Shown one piece after another: positions 10,067 to 28,572 of a stretch of 64,000 nt of DNA. Source of the DNA: a virus; the UHGV virus genome UHGV-0305822; one strand, given 5' to 3'. A program made the position numbers and the translations under genes. Under the pieces are notes generated by a model. That model searched no databases. It was not told where the DNA came from and saw only the letters and a list, made by a program, of their open reading frames with translations. How positions within the stretch are numbered: position 1 is the stretch's first letter; every line of letters begins with the position of its first letter.

Positions 10067-10966
10067 TTAAATATAATCAATGGCGAACAAAGGATCGTCG
10101 TCTACGTTAGCACCAGGGGTTAACAAGAATGGAGAGTTATACGCTTCCAAAATACGGTTAAGGTCTTTATAACGGACATTTAAACGTTCTAAATCCGCTA
10201 ACGTTACGTTACGGTCCAACACCGCCGACACTGCTGCTTTCTCTTCGTCAGTTAACGTGACTTTCGTCATTAAGAAACTAACGAGTTTTGCCAGATCCGC
10301 TTCTGTTGACGGATGCTCGCCAATACGCGTTTGAATCAAATGCTGCATCCAAGGCTTACGGATGCGTTTTGTGATTTCGTGTTCATCTGTCAGGGCAACC
10401 CACACGGAACGTTCACGATCCCACACGAACTTATAGCTATACGCCATTAAATCCGCTAAGCAATTAATCCCTAACGCTTCGTACCCTTCAATTTCGATAT
10501 ACGATTCCGTATCGAAATAGTTCTTCGTTTCTGGTGTTACCAGGGTAAAGAAATACGGGAACGAGCCTAAGTAATCCGGTGACCACCAACGACGGGCAAC
10601 CGGTTTTGCGCCCATTTCTTCAAATGGGGTAAAGAACAATTCCATATCTACGGAGTTATTCAAAATCCCGTCACTAAAGAAATATTTACCCGCAACCAGT
10701 TTACCACGCAACTCGGAGTCACCGGTAAAGACCACTACACTTTCTGCCGTCAGATCACGAATCTTAAACGTATTTTCTACACGATAGTTTTTACGATCGG
10801 TGAAGAAACGTCCGCGCACTTTAGGCCATTCGCCCGGCAACTGAGTCAACAGACGAACTTCATCTGCTAAGTGTGCACGTACGGAATCAGGGGAAGAAAT
10901 GTGAAGTGGGTGATTGAAAATTGTTTTGTACGCTAAATGTAAATCATTCTTCATTGATTGCTCCAA
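10067..10966 (-). CDS. hypothetical protein (299 aa), between Cys-rich genes and radical SAM genes
   Basis: Long ORF on operon strand; no recognisable motif. Confidence 0.5.
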   Translation of the reverse strand: MEQSMKNDLHLAYKTIFNHPLHISSPDSVRAHLADEVRLLTQLPGEWPKVRGRFFTDRKNYRVENTFKIRDLTAESVVVFTGDSELRGKLVAGKYFFSDGILNNSVDMELFFTPFEEMGAKPVARRWWSPDYLGSFPYFFTLVTPETKNYFDTESYIEIEGYEALGINCLADLMAYSYKFVWDRERSVWVALTDEHEITKRIRKPWMQHLIQTRIGEHPSTEADLAKLVSFLMTKVTLTDEEKAAVSAVLDRNVTLADLERLNVRYKDLNRILEAYNSPFLLTPGANVDDDPLFAIDYI

Positions 10967-11312: not shown

Positions 11313-11711
11313 TTACCTCCCAGAACACCCACCAGAACAACTACCTGAGCAGCCTGCAGAACAGTTTCCTACACACGAGTTAGAACAACTCCCCGTACAG
11401 CTTCCTGAACAGCCACCAGAACAGGTATTCGAACATCCACTACAGCCTGCACTACAACCTGATACACAGTTTGCAGAACACGAAGAACCACAGCCGCCTG
11501 ATGCGTTCCCTGTACAACCACCAGAACAGCTCGAACAGGTCCAGCTACAGCTCCCACCACAGTCATAGTGGTTGCGAGCTTGCCCACCGAATAAGTCTGC
11601 GTTGTTCGTCGCTTTCCCACGAATATAGTTTTGTACTGCACCCGTATTCTTCAATGCAGTGTTGTCAATGTTATTTAGCCGCGCTTGTAGCGCAGGTAAT
11701 CCAATTGCCAT
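11313..11711 (-). CDS. Cys-rich leader+core protein B (132 aa)
   Basis: ~50-aa Cys-free N-terminal segment then HYDCGGSCSWTCS followed by ~80 aa of CSG/CTG repeats (about 25 Cys). Confidence 0.6.
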   Translation of the reverse strand: MAIGLPALQARLNNIDNTALKNTGAVQNYIRGKATNNADLFGGQARNHYDCGGSCSWTCSSCSGGCTGNASGGCGSSCSANCVSGCSAGCSGCSNTCSGGCSGSCTGSCSNSCVGNCSAGCSGSCSGGCSGR

Positions 11712-11721
11712 TTTTCACCTC

Positions 11722-12120
11722 TTAGGTTGGGCCAGAACAGCCACCAGAGCAAGCACCAGAACAACCCGTAGAACAACGGCCCGAGCAAGCACCCCCACAG
11801 GTCCCACTGCAACCTGAGCAGCCACCGGAACACGTTGAACTACATCCAGTACACTGGTTACCGCACGCAGAGGAGCAGCTACCTACACACACTGACGTAC
11901 AGGTGCCCGAACAACTCGTACAGCCATGCGTACAACCGTTTGAGCACGTCCAGCTGCAACTCCCCCCGCAGTCTAACCGACTTGGCGTCCAACCCGAAAA
12001 AGTGTCGGCGGCATTATGTGCTTTCGACGCAACTTGCGGATCAACACGTGGGCCAGTTGCCATTTGGTTCTCTACGTTGGTGATTCGGTCACGTACATTT
12101 TTAACACTGATCGCCATCAC
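11722..12120 (-). CDS. Cys-rich leader+core protein A (132 aa)
   Basis: N-terminal MAISVKNVRDRITNVENQ..., junction RLDCGGSCSWTCS, then Cys/Gly/Ser/Thr repeats; GTG-ATG start with AAGGA RBS. Confidence 0.6.
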   Translation of the reverse strand: MMAISVKNVRDRITNVENQMATGPRVDPQVASKAHNAADTFSGWTPSRLDCGGSCSWTCSNGCTHGCTSCSGTCTSVCVGSCSSACGNQCTGCSSTCSGGCSGCSGTCGGACSGRCSTGCSGACSGGCSGPT

Positions 12121-12184: not shown

Positions 12185-13390
12185 TTATTTCGTACCCGCT
12201 TCTGCCTGAACGTCATCACGGGACGTCAAGTTAGCGTTAACGTGTACTGGAGCCTGAACCACACCACCGTATTTCTTGTGGAGATAGCCTGTGTGTGGGT
12301 TATCCGCCGCAATATGGTTTTGCAGGTTCTGATTCGCCTGACTGATCGCGTTCGTGTTATTCGCAACCTGTTGTTTAAGCGCATCCAGGTTTTGTTGCAG
12401 ATTATCAATTTTCTGATCGGACTCATTACCCCGTTGTTCTAACGCAGCAATGCGCTGAATCGCTTGGTTGAGTTTGGTGCTCAGATCGTTGATATTTTTC
12501 TGTAACTGTAACACTAGCGAATTTAGGTTCGCCAATGCCAATGCCATTTTCTGGTAGTTTTGTGCAACGATGTTAAGTTGGTCGTTCCACGCTTCCAAAG
12601 ATTTGACAACAGCATCAATACGTTTTCCTAACGCTTCATCCGCTTTCTTCAACGCATTAATATCAGTAATGGTTGCATCGATGGCAGACTGTACATCACG
12701 GATAAGTGCACGGATCTCCGTTTCTGTTAACCCGTTAACCTGGTGAATATCCAGATGGTGGACGTTACCCGTGGCGTTAATGTGCGCGTTCAGCGCGTCC
12801 AGGAAATCGTTTTTCAGGCTTTCGAGAATCGCTTTGATGTTCTCAAGCTGTACAGCATCGCCCGCCGTTATCGCATCTTTAATGCCAGCGAGCACTGTAA
12901 TGATATATTCGAAGCCGTAAATATCGCCGACGTCTTTATACGTCGGTGCCGACGGAAATGTATCTGGAACATTTCGCAAGTCTTTAAAGCCAACAGTTCG
13001 ATTATCGAGATTCAACTCAGCAATCGCCTGTTCTATCGCAGTCACGTTTGCCGACTGCGGACCCCCGACCACTTGCGCCGAAACCGTGATATCGGTCGGA
13101 ATCGCGGTGTTCGTTACAACAACCGCCATTACCACTTCCCGGTTCTTCGTCAATTTCTCGTAAGCCGGGTGTGCAAAAATCAACTCATAGTCCGTTCCGC
13201 GCTCATACGTCGCATCGGGGCGGTTAGCAACCCGCAAGCGGAACGTATCAGCATAAAACGGACCGTCAGGAAAAGCAAACGCACGGTTAACTTTACCTGT
13301 ACCTAACGTAACCTGACGCTCCACGGCGTTAGAGGTTAGGGTTCCCGTTAAATCTAAAGGGTATTGGTATACAATGGAGGCCATGGCCAC
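12185..13390 (-). CDS. tail fibre-like protein (401 aa) with C-terminal coiled coil
   Basis: N-terminal FPDGPFY ... GTDYEL motif shared with the three giant ORFs; long heptad-like Q/N/L-rich region. Confidence 0.6.
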   Translation of the reverse strand: MAMASIVYQYPLDLTGTLTSNAVERQVTLGTGKVNRAFAFPDGPFYADTFRLRVANRPDATYERGTDYELIFAHPAYEKLTKNREVVMAVVVTNTAIPTDITVSAQVVGGPQSANVTAIEQAIAELNLDNRTVGFKDLRNVPDTFPSAPTYKDVGDIYGFEYIITVLAGIKDAITAGDAVQLENIKAILESLKNDFLDALNAHINATGNVHHLDIHQVNGLTETEIRALIRDVQSAIDATITDINALKKADEALGKRIDAVVKSLEAWNDQLNIVAQNYQKMALALANLNSLVLQLQKNINDLSTKLNQAIQRIAALEQRGNESDQKIDNLQQNLDALKQQVANNTNAISQANQNLQNHIAADNPHTGYLHKKYGGVVQAPVHVNANLTSRDDVQAEAGTK

Positions 13391-13424
13391 TCTCCTTAAT
13401 CCGAGACGTCCTTGTCTCGTGGCG

Positions 13425-16400
13425 TTAAGATGTAAACATAAGATTGAACTGGAGCTTATCGATATCGCGCGTTTGTGCTGGGTTAACCGCGTCGTACGTG
13501 GTTGCCACGTAGACCGTTAATGTCCCGTCAGCAAACGAGGTTTTCACCGGTGGCGTAGTCCCTGTCTGTCCATCAGTTACAATGACGACAGGTTGAGACG
13601 GGAGTTGATGGAACTGACCCTTAACCGCTTTATACACCAAACCAGATTGCGCTGCTAACTCCGTGTCGGTATACACGATAAACGGTGTGTCGATATCTGT
13701 CTGTTTAATGACAGTGTTCGACTCAACGTCAATCAGCTGAACAGCACCGAACTTCGTACGGTAGCTATCGTATTCATTTTTTGGAATGACAAACGTAGCA
13801 TGTACACGGACTTCTTCGGCGGGCTTAAATCCGGCGTGTTCTTTTTCCAGATAGCTGTTAGCAGTTAACGTTACTGTCTGTTCAGTCATCGTACCACCAG
13901 ACTGGTTTAACCCGTAACGAACTTGGGTTATACCTGTCGGAGCCGCAAGCCTGATTTTTAGTCTACGGTTAGCGGTACCAGGATCGCCTGGCACTCTAAC
14001 ACGCAGGCTCAAAGCCAGATATGCATTCGCACCGGTAGTCGGTTTCGTATACGCACCCAACCACTTCATATTCGCGGTTGCCGCTTGACTGTTCTCAGAA
14101 GCAGTAGCCGCTGCAACGTTCGCAGCAACCGCTTTCTGCCAGAACTGGTCAGCGCAGTTTTCATACGCTACTCTACCGATACTTTTATAACCTGCGTAGG
14201 TTTCCTGTATCGGCAACTTGGGACGTGTTGTGATCCCGCTCAACGCATTCCATCTCTGACCATCGACATACCCTGCACCATTGCTCGCAGATGCCGTGGG
14301 GGCTTTCAGCGGTTGGTTAACCAAGGTTTGAAGTGGACCCGTTTTTCGATCGTACGCCGCCGCAACGTCGTGCTGATCTCTAACGGCAGCGTGTTCTTCT
14401 AATTCACGAACCCTGCCTAGCCGTTTCACTTTATCGATGTTAATAGCAACAATGCGCTTTTTATCGGTTGTAACTGTACCAACAAATAATCGCGAAGTCG
14501 TATCCGGCAGCTTTTCCAGCCCGATCTGATATTGAGCTTTCGAACCTACAAGAGCAGCATGAACATAGAACGTCTGGTTAGCATGGTTTTCTGGGAATTC
14601 ATTGCTTAAATCCACCGACCACGTCGGTAATGTATAGCTATTACTACCGAAATCTAACCTGACCTCTTCCGTCAAATATAGAATCCAGCCTTCCGCAGTC
14701 TCCACACCGGCGATAATAACCGCCTCCCCCCCAGTTGAGAACCTGGTGTCATTAACGAACTCTTCGGCTGTATATGCGTTACCTGAACAGAAGACACGAT
14801 CTGCTTTAGAGAAAATTAGTGCCATCTTGTCCCAATTACCCGCTCCCATGTAGCAGCCTGATTCGGGATTATGTGCAGGGGCCATCTGACGCAACTGTGA
14901 CTTACCGGGAACGCGAGTCCAGCCCGACCCAGGGTCGAAGGTGTACTTCGCAGCGTAACCCAAAGCATTTAGGTCCCCGATATTCCGTATTGTCAGCGTA
15001 TAAGGCAGCCATAGACCGAAGTTTACACCGTCGGCAGAAGCAAAAATGGGCTGGCCTACACGTCGCGTTTTATTACCCGCTTCTTCCCTCAGAGACTGAT
15101 AACTTAAGCCGTAATCAAGGTCTAAGAACCAATCAACGAGTTTGAAAGTAGCCGAGTTAAAACGTAGATAACCGTTTTCTTTGGTCGGGCTCACCATGAA
15201 GTAATAGATGTCGAGGACTCGACGTCCGTTACTCAGGATTTTCATACATGAGACTTGTAATAGGTCGAACTCACAAACAGTGTTAATGCCTAGCAACCAG
15301 AGCGCAAACAACGCGTTGCCGCTTTGGTGTGCTGCACTGATGCGCTCGTTCGCGTAACCATTTGCCTGACCAGATGGTGCGCCATCGACAATCATCCTAA
15401 TCATCTTCTGGCGATCCGCTTCCTCTAACGTCAGTCGTTCTGATGACAAGGCAAAGTTACCGTAGATGTTCCGATATGGGAAGGTTTCCGCTTTCGTCAA
15501 ATACCAACCGTTTAATTGCCCGTGACGCTCCTCAGGAGTCATGCAAGCAGCCATACAGCTTAACTGTTCGTAAAGGGTTGCATCAACTTCTCGACGGTTG
15601 TTGTTCGGGCCATAACCGCTATATCCGGGAACGTCATAAGGTTTACTTGGGTCAACTTCTACTTCGATCGTATAGCGGTTACGCGGATTGGATAACCATA
15701 CTTTGTTTGAGCCACCGATACCGACAGGATGAGAAAGACCAATGGTATAGATAGAACCACGACCTTTATCCCAAGTAAATGTCGCTTCGCCTGAGGTATT
15801 GTTTGGGTTATCGTAACGCAGATAATCAAAAAACTCTTTGCCTTGCGTACTTTTAATAGTAACATTCGGCATCTGGTCCGCATCGTTAATCTGCCAGCAG
15901 GAAAGCATCATTCCTGAGACATTAGGTTTAGCATACGTCGCAAAACAACGATTGTTTGCTTGGCCGCCACCCCACTTACGACTGGTTTCTACAGTTGAGC
16001 CATCCGCGAACGATAGTCTGGTAGTATCAACCTTAATGGGGAAACGTTCGGCACCCTCTAACGTAACTCTGCCCGTTAACGTATCGATTGTGAAACTTGT
16101 TGACCATTGACGGAAATTAATCGTCGTACCGTCGGCAGCCGCAAACCACACGCTGGGGACATGATTCACACGAATAACGCTGTCGCGTACCGCACAAGCA
16201 TGGTTACATTCTGGACCGTGAACAAAGTTGTGACCGATTGTCCATTTAGCCCGTGCCTCTGGCGGGTAATACGTAAAGAACTGACCAGTCTGCGACTCTT
16301 CGGTCTTCTGGCCAATTCTTAGGCAGAGGTTATCTCCGAATTGCCCCATTTCTCCGGTTAGGGTTACACGTTCAAATTCTAACTCAGTATTGGTAGTCAA

Positions 16401-18608
16401 ATCGGCTTTACGTAAACGCCATGCCGCCACGGCATAAGCAGAGTTATTTACCGTGGAACGAAGAAGATAAACGTGATCGTCAACTAACACAACATCGTCA
16501 GCTTCTGGCCAAGGATTCCAGGTTTGTTCCACAGTACCGCTGGGGTTGCCATTACGGTATTTAGGCATTGTAACACGACATACCACCGTGTGTTTACTGT
16601 GGTCCATTGAACCATTGAACAACACCAAATAACGGTTATTATCAGAACCCAGACAAATAATCGCTTCCTGACCACCAACCAATATCGCTTTTAAGGTCAC
16701 TCCAGGATATTTACTCATCCCAACGGGATGGTATTTCACCGAAGTTTGCTGAGGGTTCACAAACACATTCGACGTATTGATATCAGCATAGCCGTAGTAA
16801 ATAGCCTCTGTACCAGGTACACCATTAGAAGCATTACGTAACGAATAAACTTTACCTTGTTGGAATCCTACAACGCCTTTCTGATAGGACTGGTTCTTTG
16901 TAAAACCTGAATAATTACCGAGTGCCGGAATGGGTAAGAAGTTTTTGTTACCGAACTTCGCCCCACCGACAGTCCACGCAGGTAAGATGGTATTCAGTTT
17001 ATCAGAGACTTTCTTAATCTCTTTTGCGAACAACCAGCCTTGACGAGACGTGACGGCTTTATCGCTCGTGGTATCAATCGCATCCCACAACTGTAAGATA
17101 CCATCCACAGTCGCGCTGCCAATCGGGACATTATCCAAATCGGCGGTAGTGTGCGTGTGCTCCTTCACACTTTTATTTTTCAGCACGTTCGCTAACGCTT
17201 TTGTTACCGGTTTAGCGATCGGCATGGTGTTATCCATCTTATCGATACCGAAATCGGTTTTCGTTAAGGTTAACACCATTTTATCGCCCGTCTTAACAAA
17301 CCCTTTACCGTTAACCGTGTAGTCATCGTCAACGTACAAGTCTAACCGGTCTTTTAACTCGGTCACCGCCTTTTGGGAAATAGCAGTGCCTAGTGCTACG
17401 GAGGTTGCGATATTCGTAATCGAAAACACCCCATAAACCGACTCGGTTGCTGTGGGAATATTCGCGTTCAACGTTAGCGGGTTAGACTGCTTCGCTGTAC
17501 CGTATGGTTTTACGGTGTCTGATGGTTTGAAATAGGCATTTGCTTCAAGTAACGTTACAGACGTCAGGTACATGTTCACCATTTCTGGTGTAACCAAATA
17601 CACAGAGTTGTAAACCGGCGCTAATACATCCTGTTCTGTCCCAGAGTGCACCCAAAGCGTATTCAGTCCCGCACTAAATTCAACCGCCAAACCCGATTCG
17701 TTGTTGTCCTGGTCCGCTTTAATCACTAGCGGTTGCGGTGAGGTAATTAACCACTTATCACCACGGATACTGATGATGTGTCCGCCTGCGGTTTTAAACG
17801 TCAGTTCGTTACCGTTCGTGCTACCCCATCGACCGTAAACAGTGCCGAGGGCTTCACCCATTAACTGATCAACGTCTGATTGCTCAATACCCGCCGAACC
17901 CATCAGCGTAGCCAACTCGTCAATCGTCAGTCCAAACGCTTTTGTCGCGTCAACAGCACGTCCCAAAACCGGAAGGGCACCAACATCAGTGGTCGTATAC
18001 TGGTGTGCGTTAGGATTAAGGTGGTGTTGGTATAACTCCTCGTCGAAAACTTTTTTACCGTTCTCGTAAATCAGGTTAGTGACTTCGGTAAACGCTGCAT
18101 CTAACTCTGTTGAACGTTGAACGATTTTCTTACGGATGTCGTTTAACGCTTTAACAACCTCATCCCTCAGAATAGCTTCTTCTAAGTTAGCAGGGGGATC
18201 GATAGGTTGTATAACCGGTGCATACGCCATTAACTCTGACCAGTCCACGTTACGTGGGTCTTTCAGGTCAGTACGAACTAAGAACTTTCCGATTTCAGAT
18301 TGTGGTACACGATACTGGCGTGCTACCCCTAAAATCTCATATTCGATTTCTGTTGCGGTCAGCAACATAAACCCGCCATAAATCTGATCTTGCTCAGCTT
18401 CTGCGAGTTCTTTAAAGTAATAGCCTAAATAGTAGTCCAACCCCTCAATCAGAGTACGACGTCCGTTAGGCGCGGTATCGTCGGCTACTGTGAGTTTTAA
18501 TCCGATACGATAAAAAGGTCCTTCAGGCGGAATGACCACATTAAATCGGTTAGGGTACGTCGCTGTGCTTAACGTACCGTTAAACTGCGCCGCGTCTTCT
18601 CTCGGCAT
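13425..18608 (-). CDS. large tail fibre protein (1727 aa)
   Basis: N-terminal PPEGPFY ... EGLDYYL anchor-like motif; internal fibre-repeat-like segments (ATESVYGV...KAVTELK). Confidence 0.65.
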   Translation of the reverse strand: MPREDAAQFNGTLSTATYPNRFNVVIPPEGPFYRIGLKLTVADDTAPNGRRTLIEGLDYYLGYYFKELAEAEQDQIYGGFMLLTATEIEYEILGVARQYRVPQSEIGKFLVRTDLKDPRNVDWSELMAYAPVIQPIDPPANLEEAILRDEVVKALNDIRKKIVQRSTELDAAFTEVTNLIYENGKKVFDEELYQHHLNPNAHQYTTTDVGALPVLGRAVDATKAFGLTIDELATLMGSAGIEQSDVDQLMGEALGTVYGRWGSTNGNELTFKTAGGHIISIRGDKWLITSPQPLVIKADQDNNESGLAVEFSAGLNTLWVHSGTEQDVLAPVYNSVYLVTPEMVNMYLTSVTLLEANAYFKPSDTVKPYGTAKQSNPLTLNANIPTATESVYGVFSITNIATSVALGTAISQKAVTELKDRLDLYVDDDYTVNGKGFVKTGDKMVLTLTKTDFGIDKMDNTMPIAKPVTKALANVLKNKSVKEHTHTTADLDNVPIGSATVDGILQLWDAIDTTSDKAVTSRQGWLFAKEIKKVSDKLNTILPAWTVGGAKFGNKNFLPIPALGNYSGFTKNQSYQKGVVGFQQGKVYSLRNASNGVPGTEAIYYGYADINTSNVFVNPQQTSVKYHPVGMSKYPGVTLKAILVGGQEAIICLGSDNNRYLVLFNGSMDHSKHTVVCRVTMPKYRNGNPSGTVEQTWNPWPEADDVVLVDDHVYLLRSTVNNSAYAVAAWRLRKADLTTNTELEFERVTLTGEMGQFGDNLCLRIGQKTEESQTGQFFTYYPPEARAKWTIGHNFVHGPECNHACAVRDSVIRVNHVPSVWFAAADGTTINFRQWSTSFTIDTLTGRVTLEGAERFPIKVDTTRLSFADGSTVETSRKWGGGQANNRCFATYAKPNVSGMMLSCWQINDADQMPNVTIKSTQGKEFFDYLRYDNPNNTSGEATFTWDKGRGSIYTIGLSHPVGIGGSNKVWLSNPRNRYTIEVEVDPSKPYDVPGYSGYGPNNNRREVDATLYEQLSCMAACMTPEERHGQLNGWYLTKAETFPYRNIYGNFALSSERLTLEEADRQKMIRMIVDGAPSGQANGYANERISAAHQSGNALFALWLLGINTVCEFDLLQVSCMKILSNGRRVLDIYYFMVSPTKENGYLRFNSATFKLVDWFLDLDYGLSYQSLREEAGNKTRRVGQPIFASADGVNFGLWLPYTLTIRNIGDLNALGYAAKYTFDPGSGWTRVPGKSQLRQMAPAHNPESGCYMGAGNWDKMALIFSKADRVFCSGNAYTAEEFVNDTRFSTGGEAVIIAGVETAEGWILYLTEEVRLDFGSNSYTLPTWSVDLSNEFPENHANQTFYVHAALVGSKAQYQIGLEKLPDTTSRLFVGTVTTDKKRIVAINIDKVKRLGRVRELEEHAAVRDQHDVAAAYDRKTGPLQTLVNQPLKAPTASASNGAGYVDGQRWNALSGITTRPKLPIQETYAGYKSIGRVAYENCADQFWQKAVAANVAAATASENSQAATANMKWLGAYTKPTTGANAYLALSLRVRVPGDPGTANRRLKIRLAAPTGITQVRYGLNQSGGTMTEQTVTLTANSYLEKEHAGFKPAEEVRVHATFVIPKNEYDSYRTKFGAVQLIDVESNTVIKQTDIDTPFIVYTDTELAAQSGLVYKAVKGQFHQLPSQPVVIVTDGQTGTTPPVKTSFADGTLTVYVATTYDAVNPAQTRDIDKLQFNLMFTS

Positions 18609-18621
18609 CGTAAAGACTCCT

Positions 18622-18664
18622 ACTTTTAAATAAAATGGATACCCCTCCCCATTACAGGGAGGGG
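18622..18664 (-). terminator. terminator hairpin between 1401-aa and 1727-aa fibre genes
   Basis: Stem CCCCTCCC/GGGAGGGG followed on minus strand by ATCCATTTTATTTAAAAG. Confidence 0.5.
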
Positions 18665-18702
18665 TTACCTACGGACACACAACTGCCCGCAGGCAGCCTG
18701 TC

Positions 18703-21700
18703 CTAAGTACGATCCCCTAACTGCTTCCCGTTAAGTTCTCGTTTCAGTACAGCCAAAATCCACTTCCACGCTTTACTCGTGATGTGGTACGGATTGCGTT
18801 TCTCCATTAAGAATTGACTTTCGCCGCTACGGAGTTCGAAGCTCTGCGCATTGAGTTGGTCTTGGCGAACACCGTTCTCGTCAGTGACATCTAACGAACA
18901 GGTAAAGTTAAGCTCGTAGCCCTCTGGATTATTGCCTGGTGGTTCTAAGACAATATAAATGTCCTGTCCTACACGTAGGTCCTTTGGCGTAAGGGTAACT
19001 GCTTTACCTGTGTCCGCGCTGGTCGAAAGCGCAAACGGCACGCTATCGATAGCTGATACATACGCGTCCTTCCCAGCATCGCCGATAATCACCTTACCCG
19101 GCCAGTTACACTTCACCGTTCCTGTCACTTTTGCAACACGGTACTGCTGTTTATCAGCACCTTGTGCAAAGCGTAAAATGAGTTTATGCCGATACCGGTT
19201 TGCGGCAGCTTTGGATGTACTCCACTCATTGTTCCAGGAGGCATGAAGTTCACCTTTCTTGGCCATCAAAGCACCACGAGACAGCTTACGTGGGAAGAAT
19301 TGTGCCGGAAGTTGCCCTTCGTGGGAAATCGCTACACTCCCTTGTCCGGTTGGAAGTGCTATTGTTTCAGTAGGGCAATAATTTAACTCGTACACGTGTG
19401 TTGTAGGATCGATCAATTTCTGATAGTAATCGCCGTCCTTACTGTCCGCTAACCAACCAACGGAAGAGTCCGTATACGATTCAAACAGTGAACGTAAATA
19501 GTGATACTTATCGATATCGATGTTACCCGTTTTTGGATCGATCAGTGCATGGTTAATAGTGAGGAAACACTTCTCACTCAAACCATTAAACGCCAAGCCC
19601 ACGCCGTCACCGGTAAAATAGTCTACCAGGTCAAATGGAAGCGTCATTTCTATTTGTCGCAAGTTGATAGTCGTTGAACCAAACTGCGAAAAAGATAGCG
19701 CTAAACGAAGTACACGAGTATTAACATTATAACGATAACGAATCATCCCACGCGGCGCATGGTTCGCGGAGATCTTATCACCGTTTGGACCCCACCCAAT
19801 TAAATCGAGTATTTCGGCGTTTGCTACTTCACCATTAAACAAAACGTCTTTAGTCGTGATTTCAACTGACGTTTCCCTTCCGCCATCCATTAACATCGAA
19901 CCGTTATTCAACTCGAAGCTCTTGTGCCAAACTTCAGAAGTCGAGCCAGCACCTACACCCACCTTACAAGTTTTACTAGTAAGGTTAATACGCACATAAC
20001 GGCGTCCCACTGTACCGCCCTGCGAGCTTGCACACAAAATAAGATCAGGTGCCGCAGACAGTGCCTTGGTCCCTGCAATGTCATCAACATCGAAAACGAA
20101 TGAGCCTTCGAACGTTGGTGCGTTATTTTCCTTCGGGTTAAATGGCGTGAACCAACAATAAGGCGTCGCGCCCTCGGTTGAGAAAATCAACTCTAAGTCA
20201 GATTTAACATTTAATCCGTGGGAATAAGAAAAAAGACCGCGACTTAAGGTACAAAGCGTTCCACCGCTTCCGCTACCTAAGGTTTTTCGATATATTAAAG
20301 CGCGGGGTTCTGGGATAGCACGGTTTAATAACGGCAACCGTGGGTTATCCGTTAACGTCCAGTCTACAGAACTGAGTCCGTGTGCTTTACGAGCGTCGAT
20401 GTGCTCACTAACCTCGGTACTTTTCCCGAAATCAAACGTGGTTTCAAAACTCACGGTTTTATTCGAGTAAGATTCACCGGCAACAATATCAACGTAGCCG
20501 ATATAACCGCGCTCAGGGTCAACTGCAATACTCTGAATTGGCTCAGTACGCGAATACAGAGAACCTGTGAGCATGTTAACGTACAGATAATGACGAATGC
20601 CTACGTGTGTTGTAACGAACTCTTGGAGAAACTCTACGTGCGTTTCAGGGCCACTGAAATAAACGGGGTAGTCACCGTCGTAAACTTCGAATTGCACTGC
20701 TGCGGATTTAGCCGTGTCGCTACACTCAGCTTTAACCGCTACGGTGTAGTTTTCAACGTCTGCTGATGTTTCATACACTGCAACAAGCGGAGACTGGCCT
20801 GTGGCTGCCTGGATACCGTTAATGTAAACTGTAACCGGGCCACCCCCTGCGGCATAAACCCAAAGCTTCGGCTGGCGTGCCCTTACCCGCGTTTTGGCCA
20901 ACACAGTAACAACTGACTGGTCACCCATCTGTGAGGCAGTTTTACCTACCGGAACAGATTGGAAACCCATTAGTGGTGGTTCTTCAATACCTGTCCAGTT
21001 AATGCCCTTACCAGCGCTCACTTTCCCCGTAGGCCAGGTCGTCTCAATTTGGTTGTTCGGTGAGAACCAGTTAAACATCGGCGTAGTTTGCAGGTCAATC
21101 GAACCTGTAACGGCGCTATCAGCTTTCGCACCGTTCAGCAAATAGAAATATTTCAAATCTTGAACGGAGATTGCCGTACCCTGACTATTAAAACGCCAGT
21201 CTGCACCTTTTACCGCAGCAAAATCCGTTACCGACCCTTCTTTCGCGTTCGCAATCGCCGCAGCAACCACATCTAAACGCGCCGAAAGTTCTTTTAAGAT
21301 GTTCGGTACCACTGCACGGTTTTCAACCAAACCGTTCTGGTTAGTTGCGTACCGACCGATACCGTAAACGGTTTGCGAGGCTTTATAAATGCCTAGTTCC
21401 GACCAATCGTGGTGGTGACCTGCATCCGCTAAACCACTAAGCGCCGTATTTAACTCGGTAGACAACGGCTTGTCAACGTCTGCGGTGTTATCCGCTTGCC
21501 CTAACCCCAGATCAGCTTTCGTGATTGTCCTGGAGCCGTCATTCATCGGCTTACCGTTAATCATGGTCGTTTTAGCCACATACCCCGATAAGTCGGTCGA
21601 GTATGGTGCTAACGAAGCCGGTGTTGCAGCAACCCCAGTCGTTTCTGTACCTTTACCTGTTTTAAGTTTAGCGACGCCTTTTTCGGCGGTTGTCGCTTTT

Positions 21701-22908
21701 GTTGGGTCGATAGTCCCCACGATAGGGTCGGCGCGAGAACCTTTACCGGTAAAGCTAATCCCATTACGACCTTCAATGTACACCTTCGAATCGTCAGGGT
21801 CGCCACCGCCACCAGAACCCGCATCTGGATCTTGTTGGTATTCCATCAACGCCGTGGTGGTCAGTAACGGGTTACCGTTCAGGGTGAGTTTGTTCATCCC
21901 TAAAGCATCGCCTGTTGACTCGATGCGTAATGTGTTTTTACCGGCACGCCAGTTGATATAACGTCCTGCACCTGTGCCTTCCAGATGTCCTACCGCTAAT
22001 ACCACAGAACCGTTGGATTTTAACGTAAAACCATCGTTGGCAAAAATGATTTCTGACTCACCGTTTTTCGAACGGAACTGTGCGCGGTTTCCTGACACCG
22101 TACAGTTAAACACGCCCCGTACTTCCGAAGAAATCCAGTGAGAGATATACGTGTCGATAACTGACTGGGGTAAACGAAACGCTTTCAGCTCATCCGTCAG
22201 TGCTTTCAACTTTAACCCGTACGCCATAAAGGTGTCGGGCGTTTTCAAGTTAACAGGATGCGCGTTAATCTGCGCGGATGTGGTTTCGTGCGGGTTCTTC
22301 GCTGCGATATGTGCTGGGTAGTTAAATGCTTCGATTTCTTTACCCAACGCAGTCACTAACGCTTTAACTTCAGCTAATTTGTCTTTAATTAGCTGGTTAG
22401 CGTCGTCGGTTTTCAATTCAATATCGTGAACTGCCGACGCTAAATATTTTTTGTTCAGCAAATCCGCCCAGGACGTTGCTGCTGGCGTCGCTGGATATAA
22501 CGATGGTCTACCGTCTAATAACAACCAGTCAGCACTGACTGGGTTATTCAAATATTTCACCAGTTCATCGAGAATGTCAACAAACGGGTCGTAGAACGTA
22601 CCGCCGAGCATTTGTCCTTCAAAGGTTACGATACCCTTGATGGATGGGTTGATAAGGTGTACCCCACAATACACGTTGGCTGCTACCGAGTCATCCAGTT
22701 CCGTCAGCTGATATTGCAGTTCGTAGTCCACCCCACGACTCAGTGGGGTGGTTGAACCTGGTTGTCTGACGACCAAATCTTCAAAGAACGGGCGGTGGTC
22801 TAAAATCACCACCCGATCGTTGTTGTTCTCTGACCCGATGATACGCTCCTCTAAGAAGTGATTCTCGGCTTTCGTCCCCCGAGGATCGTAAGGATACGCT
22901 TTCATCAA
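18703..22908 (-). CDS. large tail fibre protein (1401 aa)
   Basis: N-terminal HRPFF ... GVDYEL motif; ATTAEKGVAKLKTG...AATPASL resembles the phage fibre repeat A[ST]xxxxG..[KR]LAT...AVTP..L. Confidence 0.65.
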   Translation of the reverse strand: MMKAYPYDPRGTKAENHFLEERIIGSENNNDRVVILDHRPFFEDLVVRQPGSTTPLSRGVDYELQYQLTELDDSVAANVYCGVHLINPSIKGIVTFEGQMLGGTFYDPFVDILDELVKYLNNPVSADWLLLDGRPSLYPATPAATSWADLLNKKYLASAVHDIELKTDDANQLIKDKLAEVKALVTALGKEIEAFNYPAHIAAKNPHETTSAQINAHPVNLKTPDTFMAYGLKLKALTDELKAFRLPQSVIDTYISHWISSEVRGVFNCTVSGNRAQFRSKNGESEIIFANDGFTLKSNGSVVLAVGHLEGTGAGRYINWRAGKNTLRIESTGDALGMNKLTLNGNPLLTTTALMEYQQDPDAGSGGGGDPDDSKVYIEGRNGISFTGKGSRADPIVGTIDPTKATTAEKGVAKLKTGKGTETTGVAATPASLAPYSTDLSGYVAKTTMINGKPMNDGSRTITKADLGLGQADNTADVDKPLSTELNTALSGLADAGHHHDWSELGIYKASQTVYGIGRYATNQNGLVENRAVVPNILKELSARLDVVAAAIANAKEGSVTDFAAVKGADWRFNSQGTAISVQDLKYFYLLNGAKADSAVTGSIDLQTTPMFNWFSPNNQIETTWPTGKVSAGKGINWTGIEEPPLMGFQSVPVGKTASQMGDQSVVTVLAKTRVRARQPKLWVYAAGGGPVTVYINGIQAATGQSPLVAVYETSADVENYTVAVKAECSDTAKSAAVQFEVYDGDYPVYFSGPETHVEFLQEFVTTHVGIRHYLYVNMLTGSLYSRTEPIQSIAVDPERGYIGYVDIVAGESYSNKTVSFETTFDFGKSTEVSEHIDARKAHGLSSVDWTLTDNPRLPLLNRAIPEPRALIYRKTLGSGSGGTLCTLSRGLFSYSHGLNVKSDLELIFSTEGATPYCWFTPFNPKENNAPTFEGSFVFDVDDIAGTKALSAAPDLILCASSQGGTVGRRYVRINLTSKTCKVGVGAGSTSEVWHKSFELNNGSMLMDGGRETSVEITTKDVLFNGEVANAEILDLIGWGPNGDKISANHAPRGMIRYRYNVNTRVLRLALSFSQFGSTTINLRQIEMTLPFDLVDYFTGDGVGLAFNGLSEKCFLTINHALIDPKTGNIDIDKYHYLRSLFESYTDSSVGWLADSKDGDYYQKLIDPTTHVYELNYCPTETIALPTGQGSVAISHEGQLPAQFFPRKLSRGALMAKKGELHASWNNEWSTSKAAANRYRHKLILRFAQGADKQQYRVAKVTGTVKCNWPGKVIIGDAGKDAYVSAIDSVPFALSTSADTGKAVTLTPKDLRVGQDIYIVLEPPGNNPEGYELNFTCSLDVTDENGVRQDQLNAQSFELRSGESQFLMEKRNPYHITSKAWKWILAVLKRELNGKQLGDRT

Positions 22909-22918
22909 AAAATTCTCC

Positions 22919-25900
22919 TTAATCGCGAATGATTACCGCCTGCACTTTATTGTTGGTGTCGATAAACGACATTACGCGCTCCTTGTTAAGATAAGGAGGT
23001 ATCGGTAACGCAGCGTAATCCGCCAGGTTGTTATTAAATTCAGTTGCCACTAACGCATTAAGCGTTTCAGGGTCTGAACTGACACCGGTCAATTCCATAA
23101 CGCGCACACGATTTAATGAGGAATAGTTGCTAATATAGTCTAACAACGTACCATAGACTTTATTCGCGGTTGTGCTATCTGCCGTAGAACGGATGTTGGC
23201 ACGAACTTCATCCTCATAAAGTCCCCCTAAACCGTAGTAAATAGGGGTATACGGATCGTTAACGATAGGTGCGATATTGAACCCTGTTAGACGGTCAGTT
23301 AGAGGGATTTTCTGCGTAGCTCCCCCTGCTGCCGTGCAACTTACGTATTTATCAGTCGCAGATAAAAACACCACGATGGTATACGTAGTGCCCGCTAAGG
23401 TCAATGTTGCGTTAAACGTTATTGCGTTATTTGCAGCACGGGTGTGGGTAAACGTTACGTCAGGTTGTAACGTATTCCACGGCGCAGGCGTAACACGCTT
23501 CGTTGGTGTGAAACCTAACACTACCGATTTCCCGCTACCGAAGTTCAAACCGAACCCTGCGTAACAATATTCACCGTTGCTGTCAGTTAAACGATAACCA
23601 CGAGTGATAAGTAACGACAACCGCATAAACTCGCCGTCGGTGTTTTTCCAACAACCTAAAACAGTTTCTAGCACCGTGCCGGTTTTTGCGTTGCTTTCTG
23701 TTTCCCAACTTACCCGCATTCCTGCGTTCTTAAAAGCTGGGAACATGTTGTGGATAAACCCGTGTAGGTTATCGCTTACCCCTTTCGCGTCAAAAATCCA
23801 CTTGGATGCGAGCTGGTCGTATTTCACCCCGTCTAAAGCTTTATACTGCCCACCGGCAACATAACGCCAATCTGCTTCACCGCGTACTACTGCCTGGAGT
23901 CCAGAAGCCCAGCAAGGTGCGCCTACCGTTAAGTTAGCTAACCCAAGCGTTGCACGTGACGCGGAGCGCTGAATGTGTGCGTTGTCATCGGCTTTATGAT
24001 CTTTCAGTTCACGGAAATCACCCAACCGTGTGACATTACGCATCTCCGTAACGAACACCTCAGAAATGTCGTTAACACCAATCAACCCTACACGCGTCAT
24101 GGTATCCGTTTCAGCCTGACTGTAGCTGTCGTGGACAATATACTTCGCTTTGTTATCAACGATATCAACAAAAATCCCTGCGTAGATTTCTGTATTCAAT
24201 TTCGGAAAACGTTCACTGACGTTAATCGTCATCAACGGAACGTCGTATGTTTCACCACCGATAAAATACGTTGAAGCTGGAAGCGTGACCAGAATTTTGT
24301 CTTTGACCGTAAGGTCTATTAAGTCGTTACCAGACTCACCAAAACGTATAATGTCAAGACGTGCCTCCGAGTCAACGCCGCTGACAGCGCGCTCCAATTT
24401 TTCAATCTGGGAAGTCTGCGCCATTACCACACTCCCATCGAGTGCTAAAGTCGCATCATCCACATCCAGACCAAATTTAATCAGACCACGTTGCGCTGTG
24501 GTTGCGTTCCCAGTACCAAAAGCGGTAAACGGGTGTTGGTGAACTTTAGGCGAGTATTTATCTAACTCCGCACGTTGTGCTGTAGAAATCGGTAAATCGA
24601 CATCGGGCGTATTCGCAACGTTACCTAAACCAAAGGTAATCTTATCGATAGTAACCGAGCTGGTAAGTTGCATGTCGTTAATGTACGATTTAACTGCAAC
24701 TAATTTACCGGTGAACTCCGCATCGAGTTTTTCAATCAGTGCTGGCGTTGCTGCAAGGTTTTCAGCGGTACCGAACTCATCGGTCAACTGCCAAGCTGCC
24801 AGAGCTGTTGTATCGGTCGCGGTAGGGAGAATAAAGGTCGCTACGAACGGCGAGGCTTTTATCCCGCTACCGGTGATCGTAACCGTTGTTGTCGAGTTTG
24901 CGTAGAATAAACCTGTACCACCTGCGGTATTGCCTGGTAGATACGGGGCCACGGTGGTGGGGTCTAAAAGTTTTTTACCACGCCACTGTAACCCTCGATC
25001 ATCAGGATACAACATAAGCTGGTTAGTACCTGCTTGGAACGTTACGGGGTTGTTACCCACGTTAACATCAGTAGAACCTTGACCGATGAACTTAATGGAT
25101 TTCGGATCAACGACAAACTGAGCGCCTAAACGTGTTTCGTCAACAACATCCGGTGCTTTCTTAATGGTAACCGTGTTACCTTTGTTTTGCGAACTAATGG
25201 TAACGGCGTCGGCAACATTATTGATCAGCGATTTAAAGTGGTGCTGATTCTCTAATGCTTCTAACGCGGCGTCCATGTTATTGAAGTTAATCCGACCGCT
25301 ATACGTTTTACTGTTTACGGTAATAACGACGTCAAACACATTCCCTGTACGCTTCAGTTGAAAACGTAGCGTAAAATCCCCATCCGGTATTGCCGGATTA
25401 GGAGCTTGTGAAATATACCGAACTGCCGGTACCGGACTCCCGTAACCGTGCAACGCCAGTTCGATAGTAAGAGTACCGGACCAGACTTCACCGCTAATCT
25501 CTACGTACTTACCGGAGTTACTACCAGGATTTTCGTAGAAACGTAAACCAACCCTACCGACCGCTTCATTACCAGACGCTGTTTTACGACCAGTAACAAT
25601 AAAGTCTATATCTTGCAGGTTGGCAGGCACCGCATTAAAGTTAGCACTGAAACCGCTTTTCGCTCCTGTGTAACGAAGCGCGCCGTGATATCTGTGACCT
25701 CTACTAACATAGCTTTCGCTAAAATAAGGACTCACGTATTTCGACATCGAAACCGGATCAACTTCCGTCGTGAACGAAGTAAAACCCGGAAGTGTGGTAA
25801 TCGTGCCGTTAACGTTCTTGCTCGCCGATTCACGAAGCAGTTTTTTCTGTGCGGTTAACGTTGCTTGTGTTGGGTACTTAGCATTAACGTAATCCGTTAA

Positions 25901-27241
25901 CTGCTGTTTCGTTTTCCCGTAAGCTAACGCGGCATCCGACGCAATACCATTCAGCTCTAACGCACGGATCGGACCCCACGTATCGGTGTGCGGGTTGTCC
26001 TTACGTGTAACGTGTTCGTGTGCAGGCGCGTTACGATACAGCTGCTCAACTAACTGATGGTATTTGACTATTAACTGGTAGACATCGTTATCGACGTCAG
26101 GTTCTGGTGCGCCGGGTAAAGAACGAATTTGAATATAATCGTTTTCGGCCGCATACCAGTTTAAATTAATGTTCGTTTTAAACTTCAACCATTTAGCAAC
26201 ATCCGTTTTCGAATACCCTGCCGAGAACTCATCAGGCGGTGTATCGACATTGAATGTGTAATCCATGGTCTGTTTATTTGTTTTTACTACGATGACGTAA
26301 ACACCGTTTCCGGGTTGACGGGTTACACTAAAATCGATATCGTTTTTTAACTCATCGTCAGTTAAACCGTTGATTAACGTATAATCGTAGTTTGTTGAAC
26401 CGCTACCAATAGCGACCGTTAAGACCAGTGAGATTTTGCGCTGTTTTAGCTGCAACCGTAGAATACTTGCACCGCCGTTAGCATAACAGAGCATCCAATC
26501 GATCTGTTCGTTTGGATTCAATTTCGTCATGTCTGGCAGAATAGCAGGAATTCTGTGTTTCACTGACAGGGCGTAGTCGTTAAAGGTTGCAGTTTTATAA
26601 CTCAAGCTATAACGATGACGGGTAGTGTTGTAGGTGAAGCCACCTTTATTGTCGTATACGGCATACTGCTCGGAAGTGATAACCTTGCTATTAGCACGGT
26701 ATTCTAAATCCAGGGTATTGCGTGCGATGGGGTTAAGTCGACTCACGACTTCCCCTAACGAATCGCCTAATCCAGCAATAGCCTGCATTAATTCCAGTTC
26801 ACCTTTCCAATTCTCCCAATCGAACTGGATATCGACCGGCGGAAAGTAAACGTCCCCGATGACGGTGTCCCACTGACACGCAGACGGGTATTTATCTTTA
26901 TTGAGTTCGCGTTCTGCGGTAATCTGTTGTTGGGTAGCCTGACCACAACCAACGGCGTGGTAATCTACCGTAAAATTCGATTTGTATTTGTCATTAACAA
27001 TCCAAATCATCCCGTGAATGAGATAGGCTGTGCGCAACATACCGGTCTCGTACGGGTGTGTAATAACGTAATCGTCGCCTAAGGTCAGTGTTTTGCCGCC
27101 GCTCTTGACCACCAGGGATGTGGTGAAAAAAGGGGCGTGGGCAGGTACCAACATTCGGTATTTCGTACCAATGACGGCGACCGCTTCACCGGTTATTTTA
27201 TTCCCCGGTTTTTTGAAGTGTGGGTCTAGGACGACAGCCAT
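22919..27241 (-). CDS. large tail fibre protein (1440 aa)
   Basis: N-terminal HAPFF ... GDDYVI motif; TTAQRGLIKFG fibre-repeat-like segment; only 10 nt from next gene (co-transcribed). Confidence 0.65.
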   Translation of the reverse strand: MAVVLDPHFKKPGNKITGEAVAVIGTKYRMLVPAHAPFFTTSLVVKSGGKTLTLGDDYVITHPYETGMLRTAYLIHGMIWIVNDKYKSNFTVDYHAVGCGQATQQQITAERELNKDKYPSACQWDTVIGDVYFPPVDIQFDWENWKGELELMQAIAGLGDSLGEVVSRLNPIARNTLDLEYRANSKVITSEQYAVYDNKGGFTYNTTRHRYSLSYKTATFNDYALSVKHRIPAILPDMTKLNPNEQIDWMLCYANGGASILRLQLKQRKISLVLTVAIGSGSTNYDYTLINGLTDDELKNDIDFSVTRQPGNGVYVIVVKTNKQTMDYTFNVDTPPDEFSAGYSKTDVAKWLKFKTNINLNWYAAENDYIQIRSLPGAPEPDVDNDVYQLIVKYHQLVEQLYRNAPAHEHVTRKDNPHTDTWGPIRALELNGIASDAALAYGKTKQQLTDYVNAKYPTQATLTAQKKLLRESASKNVNGTITTLPGFTSFTTEVDPVSMSKYVSPYFSESYVSRGHRYHGALRYTGAKSGFSANFNAVPANLQDIDFIVTGRKTASGNEAVGRVGLRFYENPGSNSGKYVEISGEVWSGTLTIELALHGYGSPVPAVRYISQAPNPAIPDGDFTLRFQLKRTGNVFDVVITVNSKTYSGRINFNNMDAALEALENQHHFKSLINNVADAVTISSQNKGNTVTIKKAPDVVDETRLGAQFVVDPKSIKFIGQGSTDVNVGNNPVTFQAGTNQLMLYPDDRGLQWRGKKLLDPTTVAPYLPGNTAGGTGLFYANSTTTVTITGSGIKASPFVATFILPTATDTTALAAWQLTDEFGTAENLAATPALIEKLDAEFTGKLVAVKSYINDMQLTSSVTIDKITFGLGNVANTPDVDLPISTAQRAELDKYSPKVHQHPFTAFGTGNATTAQRGLIKFGLDVDDATLALDGSVVMAQTSQIEKLERAVSGVDSEARLDIIRFGESGNDLIDLTVKDKILVTLPASTYFIGGETYDVPLMTINVSERFPKLNTEIYAGIFVDIVDNKAKYIVHDSYSQAETDTMTRVGLIGVNDISEVFVTEMRNVTRLGDFRELKDHKADDNAHIQRSASRATLGLANLTVGAPCWASGLQAVVRGEADWRYVAGGQYKALDGVKYDQLASKWIFDAKGVSDNLHGFIHNMFPAFKNAGMRVSWETESNAKTGTVLETVLGCWKNTDGEFMRLSLLITRGYRLTDSNGEYCYAGFGLNFGSGKSVVLGFTPTKRVTPAPWNTLQPDVTFTHTRAANNAITFNATLTLAGTTYTIVVFLSATDKYVSCTAAGGATQKIPLTDRLTGFNIAPIVNDPYTPIYYGLGGLYEDEVRANIRSTADSTTANKVYGTLLDYISNYSSLNRVRVMELTGVSSDPETLNALVATEFNNNLADYAALPIPPYLNKERVMSFIDTNNKVQAVIIRD

Positions 27242-27309: not shown

Positions 27310-28572
27310 GTGACTACTGCTTATCAAGTGCGGCCCGACAGCGCTTTTGGCTTCTCTCGAGAGTCCCGTACCTGGGGAGCCATCGATGTCACGCAACCCT
27401 TAAATACGTTGTGTTCAGACTACCACACCTTTGAGATCGGTTTAAGTGCACTTGGTAAAGACTATACGTTAGTCAGCCAATACCATCTTGCCGAACTACA
27501 AAACCGAACAGACACTTTACAAGATTGGTTAAATGAAAAAGCCGGAAACGTCATCCCTACTCTAAAAGCCGGATTGCCGAAACTCGAATTCAGTTGGGCA
27601 CATTACCAATCGATTAATGCCGACGTACCCGTTGAAACGTACCTGTGTCCGCCTGGGTACCACCACAGTCAAGATTTCAGCTTAGACGATGCTGATGACG
27701 TTGTCATCGTTTGTGAGGACAAGTGGAAGGACAAATACCGTAATAGTGTACTGTACAACATTAACGGTCAATGGGTACCGCACCAGACAGATACCGTAGG
27801 TGTCCGATTACCCGGGGCCGGTAAAATCGTACGGAGAGCCTGTACGCCAGATATCGGCTGTATGGTTTTTGGTCAGTTAGGGAATGTTAAAACTTACCCC
27901 ATTGCCAACCTTACCCTAAACAAGCTCGACACTACACGTGACTATTACTCCACGCTAATGATTTCGCTGCCCGAATCTATTACGGGAAAAACGGTGGGTT
28001 TCGTCATCGGTGGACTGTTACGTTGGTTGCCTCCGGGCGGTTATTTCTCCGACCGTGCGATCATGATTTCTTTGCCGAATTTTGATCTTGCTCGGACCGT
28101 TCTGGAAACCCGTCGCTATTACGACTGGGACGCCATCGGTGTGGGTGATTTATCAACGCCTACTAATGTCCAACGTATTCGCAACCCCGAAACATTAAAG
28201 GCGCTTTTACTCCACGAGTCTTCGTTTATCTTTACGGTAGATAATCCGTATTTAGAAGAAGAGGTTGTGGGTGTATCGCATAACGCAGTTTGGGGACGTT
28301 GTTATCTCAAGGACCCTAGCGATCCTGATTCTGAAAAACCATTAGGGTACTTAAATAATCGCTTCGGAAAGACCGTGGGCTATTGGCCTACATGGGAGGA
28401 GGGTGAGTGGGTATTTAACACCACCGAATTCGACAGTCAAAACTACGTCTTTCGTGAAGCCCGGTGGTATAATCAGAAGAAGATTAACGACGCGCAAGCA
28501 ATCGTCGGTCCATTCGGTCCCTGGGAAAAAGTGTATTTAGAAATGCATCGCTTTAGAGCACGAAAAAAATAA
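27310..28572 (+). CDS. hypothetical protein (420 aa), divergent from fibre operon
   Basis: GTG start with GAGGAAAAGAG RBS; 68-nt divergent intergenic region; no motif recognised. Confidence 0.5.
   Translation: MTTAYQVRPDSAFGFSRESRTWGAIDVTQPLNTLCSDYHTFEIGLSALGKDYTLVSQYHLAELQNRTDTLQDWLNEKAGNVIPTLKAGLPKLEFSWAHYQSINADVPVETYLCPPGYHHSQDFSLDDADDVVIVCEDKWKDKYRNSVLYNINGQWVPHQTDTVGVRLPGAGKIVRRACTPDIGCMVFGQLGNVKTYPIANLTLNKLDTTRDYYSTLMISLPESITGKTVGFVIGGLLRWLPPGGYFSDRAIMISLPNFDLARTVLETRRYYDWDAIGVGDLSTPTNVQRIRNPETLKALLLHESSFIFTVDNPYLEEEVVGVSHNAVWGRCYLKDPSDPDSEKPLGYLNNRFGKTVGYWPTWEEGEWVFNTTEFDSQNYVFREARWYNQKKINDAQAIVGPFGPWEKVYLEMHRFRARKK

Follow-up and report, generated by a model that had tools for sequence, protein, structure and literature searches.

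Four tandem fibre genes of an SPN3US-like jumbo phage probably belong to the phiKZ gp131-like family of peripheral baseplate proteins

Four consecutive open reading frames (ORFs) on the minus strand of the virus genome UHGV-0305822 occupy positions 12185-27241 of the 64,000-nucleotide stretch of DNA that was analysed (the window), and are referred to below as genes A, B, C and D. We suggest with considerable confidence that their products make up the set of peripheral baseplate fibres in an SPN3US-like chimallivirus and that they belong to the paralogue family represented by phiKZ gp131. The location at the periphery of the tail and a hetero-hexameric base with a six-helix bundle are taken from the literature on relatives and would apply to the window phage by analogy. 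The paralogue family and its anchoring role have already been published and A-D are further members of it, so that no new question is opened. The new details are the contrast in identity among the anchors, a predicted propeller and a carbohydrate-binding-module (CBM)-like domain in B, and an insertion with a hypervariable patch in D.

All four proteins open with a homologous domain of about 210 aa. The initial annotation had noticed a common N-terminal motif, PF(Y/F)...G.DY, and this motif proved to be real: P-F, G-x-D-Y and a G are invariant in the alignment of the N-termini, and all four N-termini match phrog_2163 (E values of 9e-104, 3e-42, 3e-30 and 2e-17), in A over the full length. Pairwise BLASTP of the N-termini is weak (E = 1e-6 for A-C and 0.01-0.07 for the remaining pairs), and a single comparison would therefore not settle homology, whereas the profiles do. 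A hidden Markov model (HMM) of the domain run against the 263 six-frame ORFs of the window matched A-D and no fifth copy, although this test is circular because the HMM was built from those same four sequences.

Over the first 165 residues, orthologous anchors from three genera are 70-87% identical, whereas the paralogues within a genome share only 15-22%. This difference indicates that the duplication of the anchor is old, and each of the four anchors has kept its own identity. Such a pattern would fit non-equivalent positions in one assembly and is less expected of interchangeable plugs.

In each protein the anchor opens with a beta domain of about 110 aa; a W..(I/V)..P..FPP linker follows, and then come an amphipathic helix (about 45 aa) and an H-x-x-x-N-P-H turn. 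The AlphaFold2 (AF2) model of A, calculated from an 80-sequence alignment, has a mean predicted local distance difference test (pLDDT) score of 78 and gives a confident beta domain (Table 1), and the columns homologous to the helix region of A align in B, C and D. Foldseek of this model against the PDB returned no match at E <= 1e-3. No Pfam model covers the anchor; phiKZ gp131 and gp133 likewise have no N-terminal Pfam match, while a DUF7941 control works. The only PDB sequence match of the anchor profile is a W..P..FPP..H.H linker motif: the stretch ..dW..i..P..FPP..H.H.. (anchor-profile positions 111-161, A aa ~115-165) was found twice in chain La of 9D93, "tail collar fibers gp4", with an E value of 1e-6 for the whole chain and of 0.04 and 0.16 for the two stretches singly. 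This linker motif appears to be a short repeat unit common to the fibres of unrelated phages.

The domain is widespread. A profile of the window N-termini searched against 1.84 billion cluster representatives matched 3316 proteins at E <= 1e-3 and 2449 at E <= 1e-10. In the four window proteins, and in all of the top 150 library matches (159 to 2488 aa long), its first residue falls within positions 1-20. Downstream of the anchor, 56 diverse family members carry Peptidase_S74 (8), PKD (5), Phage Tail Collar (2) and Phage_fiber_2 (2) domains, which argues that the domain is an N-terminal adaptor joined to classic fibre parts. It was also found by tblastn in 234 phage records; the records listed are all of 197-316 kb, and their hosts include Pseudomonas, Erwinia, Salmonella, Serratia, Klebsiella and Ralstonia.

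Outside the SPN3US group, the comparison is with phiKZ. The N-termini of phiKZ gp131, gp133, gp134 and gp135 are homologous to those of the window: hhalign of 12 SPN3US-type N-termini against them gave a probability of 99.7% and an E value of 4e-26 over 206 columns. With BLASTP, A matches phiKZ gp135 (E = 1e-14) and gp131 (E = 6e-5), and the 420-aa neighbour of D matches phiKZ gp130 over almost its full length (E = 2e-13). The gp130-type gene is divergent from the paralogue run in phiKZ, SPN3US, Asesino and Goslar alike; in Goslar, gp30 is divergent from gp29, and gp25 lies further along the gp29 strand. BLASTP against phiKZ gp131 found no similarity beyond the N-terminal region, and neither the fibre module of about 250 aa described below nor the D insertion was detected there.

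In the structural atlas of phiKZ (Nat Commun 2026, PMC13250141), twelve peripheral fibres are each docked under gp130 on the outer baseplate. The attachment site holds six gp131-like N-domains and a six-helix bundle, and was modelled as three copies of gp131 together with gp133, gp134 and gp135 (PMC13250141). The evidence for the location in phiKZ comes from immunogold labelling and cryo-electron microscopy (PMC13250141, PMC5105663). According to Sycheva et al. [quoted passage not shown] By analogy, the 420-aa gp130 homologue of the window is presumed to be the docking platform for the fibre bases.

The orthologues in SPN3US have been studied as virion proteins. Thomas et al. (2016, PMC5105663) reported that gp168 is a tail protein whose paralogue family resembles gp131, and that gp171 is essential and associated with the tail. 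Ali et al. (2017, PMC5694885) defined gp168-170 as "paralog family C", candidates for baseplate or fibre proteins that are missing from a tailless mutant. Their spectral-counting values (SC/M) are 1.08, 1.41 and 1.00 for gp168-170 and 0.93 for the 12-copy portal; gp167 (1.90) and gp171 (0.74) are given in the supplementary table as virion proteins without a head assignment (PMC5694885).

From its protein matches and gene order, which agree, the window is assigned to the genome of an SPN3US-like chimallivirus (jumbo phage). The order and orientation of A-D and the divergent 420-codon gene are those of gp167-168-169-170/gp171 in SPN3US and of gp187-190/gp191 in Asesino, and protein A is 77.6% identical to SPN3US gp167 and 76.6% identical to Asesino gp187. 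At the nucleotide level, the region matches the Erwinia phages Asesino, phiEaH2 and Stratton and the Salmonella phages STsAS/SPAsTU with 70-76% identity over 3-6% of its length, and no record in the phage collection exceeds 76% identity to it. The gaps A-B, B-C and C-D are 34, 94 and 10 nt long, the divergent gene lies 68 nt from D, and a baseplate assembly gene lies nearby. An AAGGAG/AGGAG ribosome-binding site precedes every one of the four genes. The minus-strand ORFs of 401, 1727, 1401 and 1440 aa initially annotated are all present where they had been placed; judging from the spacing of the ribosome-binding sites and from homologues, A likely starts slightly further in, at ATG 13384 (399 aa), and C probably does so as well, at ATG 22905 (1400 aa).

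Downstream of the anchor, A continues as a trimer-type coiled coil, and B, C and D as a fibre module followed by differing large distal regions. The fibre repeat that had been noticed in the large proteins stands up to a shuffling control: the motif A[ST]..x.G...A.[ST]P..L occurs once or twice per large protein, compared with 0.00-0.02 expected from shuffles. The motif is part of a collinear ~250-aa module common to B, C and D, which also has a DNT.DVDKP.S motif (BLASTP E = 2e-19 for B-C and 2e-11 for C-D). Local matches to PHROG tail-fibre families were found (phrog_35419, E = 3e-6; phrog_13892, E = 1e-6), and B aa 1320-1459 and D aa 994-1139 represent one further common domain (BLASTP E = 8e-7). 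The fibre, spike and C-terminal chaperone or peptidase domains that the initial annotation had in mind have no Pfam match in A-D. Pfam and NCBIfam scans of A-D and the gp130 homologue revealed no meaningful domain, with coiled-coil noise only in A. Phage_fiber_2 (PF03406) is not matched in A-D at E <= 0.1 and is matched by two distant members of the anchor family, and the C-terminal Peptidase_S74 (PF13884) has no match in A-D and is present in other proteins with the same anchor. In the PDB, no relative turned up at the sequence level, whether the query was a single protein or a profile of B, D or the fibre module.

A 12-sequence alignment was the basis for modelling the distal 1168 aa of B; the model has a mean pLDDT of 66, with many blocks of 75-89, and its structure is almost wholly beta. 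Foldseek gave 20 matches at E <= 1e-3, mostly to GH43, GH62 and GH32 propellers, and a CBM61-like sandwich at E = 2.1e-3 with a probability of 1.00. The distal part of B is predicted, with moderate confidence, to comprise a beta-propeller and a CBM-like sandwich, which would fit carbohydrate recognition, and we infer that the receptors are carbohydrates. B and its homologues are 1727 aa long in three lineages (window, SPN3US and Asesino), with only 44-49% identity in the distal half. B was also considered as a sequence relative of the phiKZ gp131 C-terminus and was rejected as such, there being no sequence similarity.

Protein D combines an almost constant anchor with variable segments. Among 54 close homologues, the column entropy is 0.02-0.08 in the anchor (aa 1-160) and peaks at aa 561-600 (0.76), aa 1241-1280 (0.45) and aa 201-240 (0.40). 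The most variable patch, aa 561-600, lies inside the 205-aa insertion and exists in several discrete alleles. We suggest that this insertion and the cassette at aa 180-370 are candidate host-range determinants. A diversity-generating retroelement behind the hypervariable patch was set aside, as the variation resembles discrete mosaic alleles; a reverse transcriptase was not searched for. An internal duplication of lectin-like domains in D had been suspected by eye and received no support from BLASTP between the segments.

Taken together with the literature on phiKZ, these data lead us to propose that the N-domains and helices of several paralogues would pack at the fibre-attachment sites of the outer baseplate under the gp130 homologue. 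The distinct distal domains would hang toward the cell surface, where they may serve in adsorption and keep the baseplate positioned above the cell before tail contraction, as proposed for phiKZ. The initial annotation had supposed multiple fibres attached to a common site in a branched or multi-receptor adsorption apparatus; the use of several receptors may be considered a possibility. The common site is retained in the form of the shared gp131-like anchor, through its homology to phiKZ, and the separate fibres are given up, as the paralogues probably co-assemble at each site. One possible composition per site is three copies of A, which has the coiled coil, and one each of B, C and D. We put it forward tentatively because gp167 of SPN3US is only 1.3-1.9 times as abundant as gp168-170, though the latter are roughly portal-like in abundance. 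That each peripheral fibre is such an asymmetric hetero-hexamer, with an A-trimer core and a branched arrangement of three specificities, is conceivable but doubtful. If it were true, every attachment site would carry three different giant arms (~135-190 kDa each) with differing glycan-binding distal domains, the inverse of the phiKZ layout with one large protein in three copies and three small ones, and the lineage-specific insertions and cassettes in D would tune the host range.

Several points weigh against the proposed peripheral fibre set and its co-assembly. The phiKZ hetero-hexamer consists of AlphaFold models docked in maps of 4.4-4.6 Å, and its authors use the word "candidate" (PMC13250141). 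The assembly state is extrapolated from phiKZ with an anchor that is only 15-25% identical, and the window phage is known from sequence alone. The paralogue sets differ, with one large and three small proteins in phiKZ and three very large and one small here, so that the stoichiometry may not transfer. The SC/M of gp167 is not three times that of gp168-170, as the composition above would have it. No Pfam, NCBIfam or PDB sequence match for a receptor-binding or enzymatic domain was found in B, C or D. The B model has the low mean pLDDT and shallow alignment given above, and the phiKZ gp131 propeller 4GBF is absent from its top structural matches in Foldseek. Finally, the PHROGs category of these families is "head and packaging", which appears to be a generic label tied to "virion structural protein".

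Most characterised phage fibres and spikes are homotrimers. The main rival explanation is that A-D form four independent homotrimeric fibres, each docking separately, with the shared N-domain as a common plug for equivalent or neighbouring sockets. Besides the prevalence of homotrimers, this explanation could draw on the long coiled coil of A, which is typical of trimers, on the many family members with Peptidase_S74, which acts as a chaperone domain in homotrimeric fibres, at the C-terminus, and on the fact that the phiKZ hetero-hexamer is a medium-resolution docking model. However, plugs for one socket should stay alike, and the paralogous anchors have diverged far beyond the orthologous ones across three genera. 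SPN3US and Asesino have these four genes in identical order, and the phiKZ density shows six N-domains per site. The abundance of SPN3US gp168-170 is close to that of the 12-copy portal and not to the at least 36 copies needed for twelve homotrimers, although spectral counting is a rough measure. On balance, we regard four independent fibres as possible but rather unlikely.

It might also be considered that A-D are mainly structural proteins of the baseplate periphery, such as struts or a cage, and that the host is recognized by others, for example DUF7941-type filaments or other fibres with genes elsewhere in the genome. The strongly conserved length of B, at 1727 aa in three lineages, would agree with this, as would the lack of a detected curated receptor-binding or depolymerase domain and the presence of other candidate recognition fibres in chimalliviruses (Goslar preprint). 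This explanation leaves unaccounted for the fibre-type sequence modules, the lectin- or glycosidase-type propeller and CBM-like fold predicted in B, and the Collar, S74 and PKD domains of relatives with the same anchor. The cassette exchange, the insertion and the hypervariable patches of D beside an invariant anchor are, moreover, what would be expected of a host-contact protein, and we consider a purely structural role improbable. The last alternative, a chance or compositional resemblance of the N-termini in genes for unrelated virion or head proteins, for which the non-significant pairwise BLASTP results for some N-termini and the PHROGs category could be cited, is practically negligible and already refuted by the overwhelming profile evidence (phrog_2163, hhalign and the library profile search) and by the SPN3US orthologues, which tailless particles lack and which do not figure among the head proteins.

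Table 1. Positions of the fibre genes, their parts and neighbouring features (nucleotides of the window, or aa of protein A where so marked).
Feature	Position	Strand	Remarks
Gene A	12185..13390	-	401 codons; likely 399 aa from ATG 13384; orthologue of SPN3US gp167, Asesino gp187
Gene B	13425..18608	-	1727 aa; orthologue of SPN3US gp168, Asesino gp188; full-length phrog_7449
Gene C	18703..22908	-	1401 codons; probably 1400 aa; orthologue of SPN3US gp169, Asesino gp189; full-length phrog_8078
Gene D	22919..27241	-	1440 aa; orthologue of SPN3US gp170, Asesino gp190; C-terminal half matches phrog_7557
gp130 homologue	27310..28572	+	420 aa; homologue of phiKZ gp130 / SPN3US gp171; phrog_3337 (E 6e-144)
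Anchor and bundle helix of A (aa 1-215)	12746..13390	-	gp131-like; profile matches and AF2 model
Anchor and helix of B	17964..18608	-	gp131-like; profile matches
Anchor and helix of C	22264..22908	-	gp131-like; profile matches
Anchor and helix of D	26612..27241	-	gp131-like; nearly invariant among 54 close homologues
Beta domain of A	aa 10-110		AF2, pLDDT >90
Helix of A	aa 116-125		AF2
Linker of A, W..P..FPP region	aa 126-160		AF2, low confidence
Helices of A	aa 161-205		AF2
H..N.H turn of A	aa 203-211		AF2
Continuous coiled coil of A	aa 223-361		AF2
Fibre-type module of B (aa 266-580)	16869..17813	-	AT..G...A.SQ..V and DNT...KPV motifs; local PHROG tail-fibre matches
Predicted beta-propeller of B (~aa 579-919)	15852..16874	-	AF2 and Foldseek
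Fibre-type module of C (aa 300-560)	21229..22011	-	two fibre-motif copies and DNTADVDKPLS
Fibre-type module of D (aa 690-945)	24407..25174	-	motifs and BLASTP
Lineage-specific insertion of D (~205 aa, aa 495-700)	25142..25759	-	gap in SPN3US gp170 and Asesino gp190
Exchangeable cassette of D (aa 180-370)	26132..26704	-	~17% identity in homologue P0092, ~95% on either side
Strong terminator-like hairpin	18641..18665	-	94-nt C-B gap; 11-bp stem with seven G-C pairs, then T-rich run; consensus match
Two paralogous 132-aa Cys-rich ORFs	11722-12120, 11313-11711	-	both phrog_6085; 35% identical mutually
299-aa protein	10067-10966	-	no assigned function; between Cys-rich ORFs and radical SAM genes
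Two radical SAM enzymes	9122-10045, 7816-9138	-	part of the RiPP-like cassette

A scan of the region for promoters and terminators gave counts that were not above those of shuffled sequence, and the hairpin between C and B alone is noteworthy. It may be an internal terminator or attenuator of the fibre gene cluster.

Directly downstream of gene A there is a cassette resembling those for ribosomally synthesized and post-translationally modified peptides (RiPPs), in which two Cys-rich ORFs are followed by two radical S-adenosylmethionine (SAM) enzymes (Table 1). The leader shared by the 132-aa products is conserved, about 50 aa in length, and ends in DCGGSCSWTCS; about 80 aa of C-x-x-x-C repeats come after it. 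One of the two products satisfies the cutoff of TIGR04114, the model for CXXX-repeat targets. The 440-aa radical SAM enzyme best matches PapB-type ranthipeptide maturases and the CXXX-repeat target maturase family TIGR04115 (E about 1e-33), a match that falls short of the curated cutoffs. In SPN3US, gp165 and gp166 are both absent from the virion proteome (PMC5694885). Reference records appear to have missed or wrongly annotated the Cys-rich peptide genes. In Asesino there are three Cys-rich ORFs, one of them unannotated (locus L001, 5584-5967, 5174-5629 and 4924-5130, all on the minus strand). The "gp166" translation of SPN3US (locus L005, 19751-20086) has a high content of Val, Ala and Arg and seems to result from calling the corresponding repeat DNA on the wrong strand or in the wrong frame. 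In the E. coli plasmid record NZ_CP173450.1 (locus L006, 5463-5747), an opposite-strand ORF alone is annotated over the Cys-rich gene. We found no published account of such a RiPP-like system in jumbo phages, and the cassette may be more novel than the fibre genes.

Related sequences are also present in bacterial isolates. D has more than 90 near-identical protein clusters from isolate assemblies of Salmonella enterica, E. coli and Shigella, many of them on contigs of 220-226 kb. The region is 84% identical to two records filed as plasmids: the circular 221,873-bp p98232-contig_4 of a urinary E. coli isolate and a 222,441-bp Enterobacter ludwigii plasmid. This suggests that clinical isolates harbour an SPN3US-like jumbo phage, either as a persisting carrier-state or episomal element or as a contaminant.

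In the RefSeq and GenBank records of this lineage and its relatives, these four genes are labelled "hypothetical protein" or "virion structural protein". The present analysis puts names on the four and links them to the recent phiKZ structural model of jumbo-phage adsorption. For the therapeutic use and engineering of SPN3US-like phages of Salmonella and E. coli, the parts that should be retained are the ~210-aa anchor and its gp130-like partner. The candidate segments for swaps aimed at another host range are aa 180-370 and aa 495-700 of D, together with the distal domains.

Compared with known fibre systems, A-D share with T7-like fibres a small N-terminal anchor with interchangeable distal parts, which is a resemblance only. 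The best Foldseek matches of the A model are the adaptor-binding N-termini of T7-like fibres and spikes, namely T7 gp17 (7BOZ, 7EY9) and those of the Klebsiella phages Kp7 and Kp9 (E = 0.03-0.08, probability 0.7-0.85), and some collar proteins are also among its best sub-significant matches. The matches of A to the T7 gp17-type adaptor are non-significant, with low TM-scores and no Pfam match. The DUF7941 (PF25613) filaments, represented by gp22/gp23 in Goslar and gp126/127/143 in phiKZ, are likewise chimallivirus-specific paralogues with an N-terminal module and variable host-recognition domains, and a peripheral baseplate location has been proposed for both families. Membership of A-D in DUF7941 was rejected, as no PF25613 match was found at E <= 0.1, whereas the control, Goslar gp22, matched with E = 2.6e-52 in the same library.

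The likeness to phiKZ gp130-gp135 goes further. It includes the homologous N-domain, helix and H..NPH unit, a conserved anchor joined to unrelated C-terminal parts, and tandem paralogues divergent from a gp130 homologue. The beta-propeller predicted in the largest member, B, may correspond to that of the gp131 C-terminal domain, although 4GBF is not among the top fold matches. The two sets differ in size: that of phiKZ is made up of a 771-aa protein, three proteins of ~460 aa and a 110-aa fragment, and that of the window phage of one 399-aa protein and three that are 1400-1727 aa long. SPN3US gp167-171 and Asesino gp187-191 correspond to the window genes directly as orthologues, with order and orientation unchanged and anchors of 70-87% identity. 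D of the window differs from SPN3US gp170 and Asesino gp190 in being about 200 aa longer, owing to the insertion at aa 495-700, and in carrying another cassette at aa 180-370. The published family C of SPN3US comprises three members, and according to the profile evidence the gp167-type protein is the fourth.

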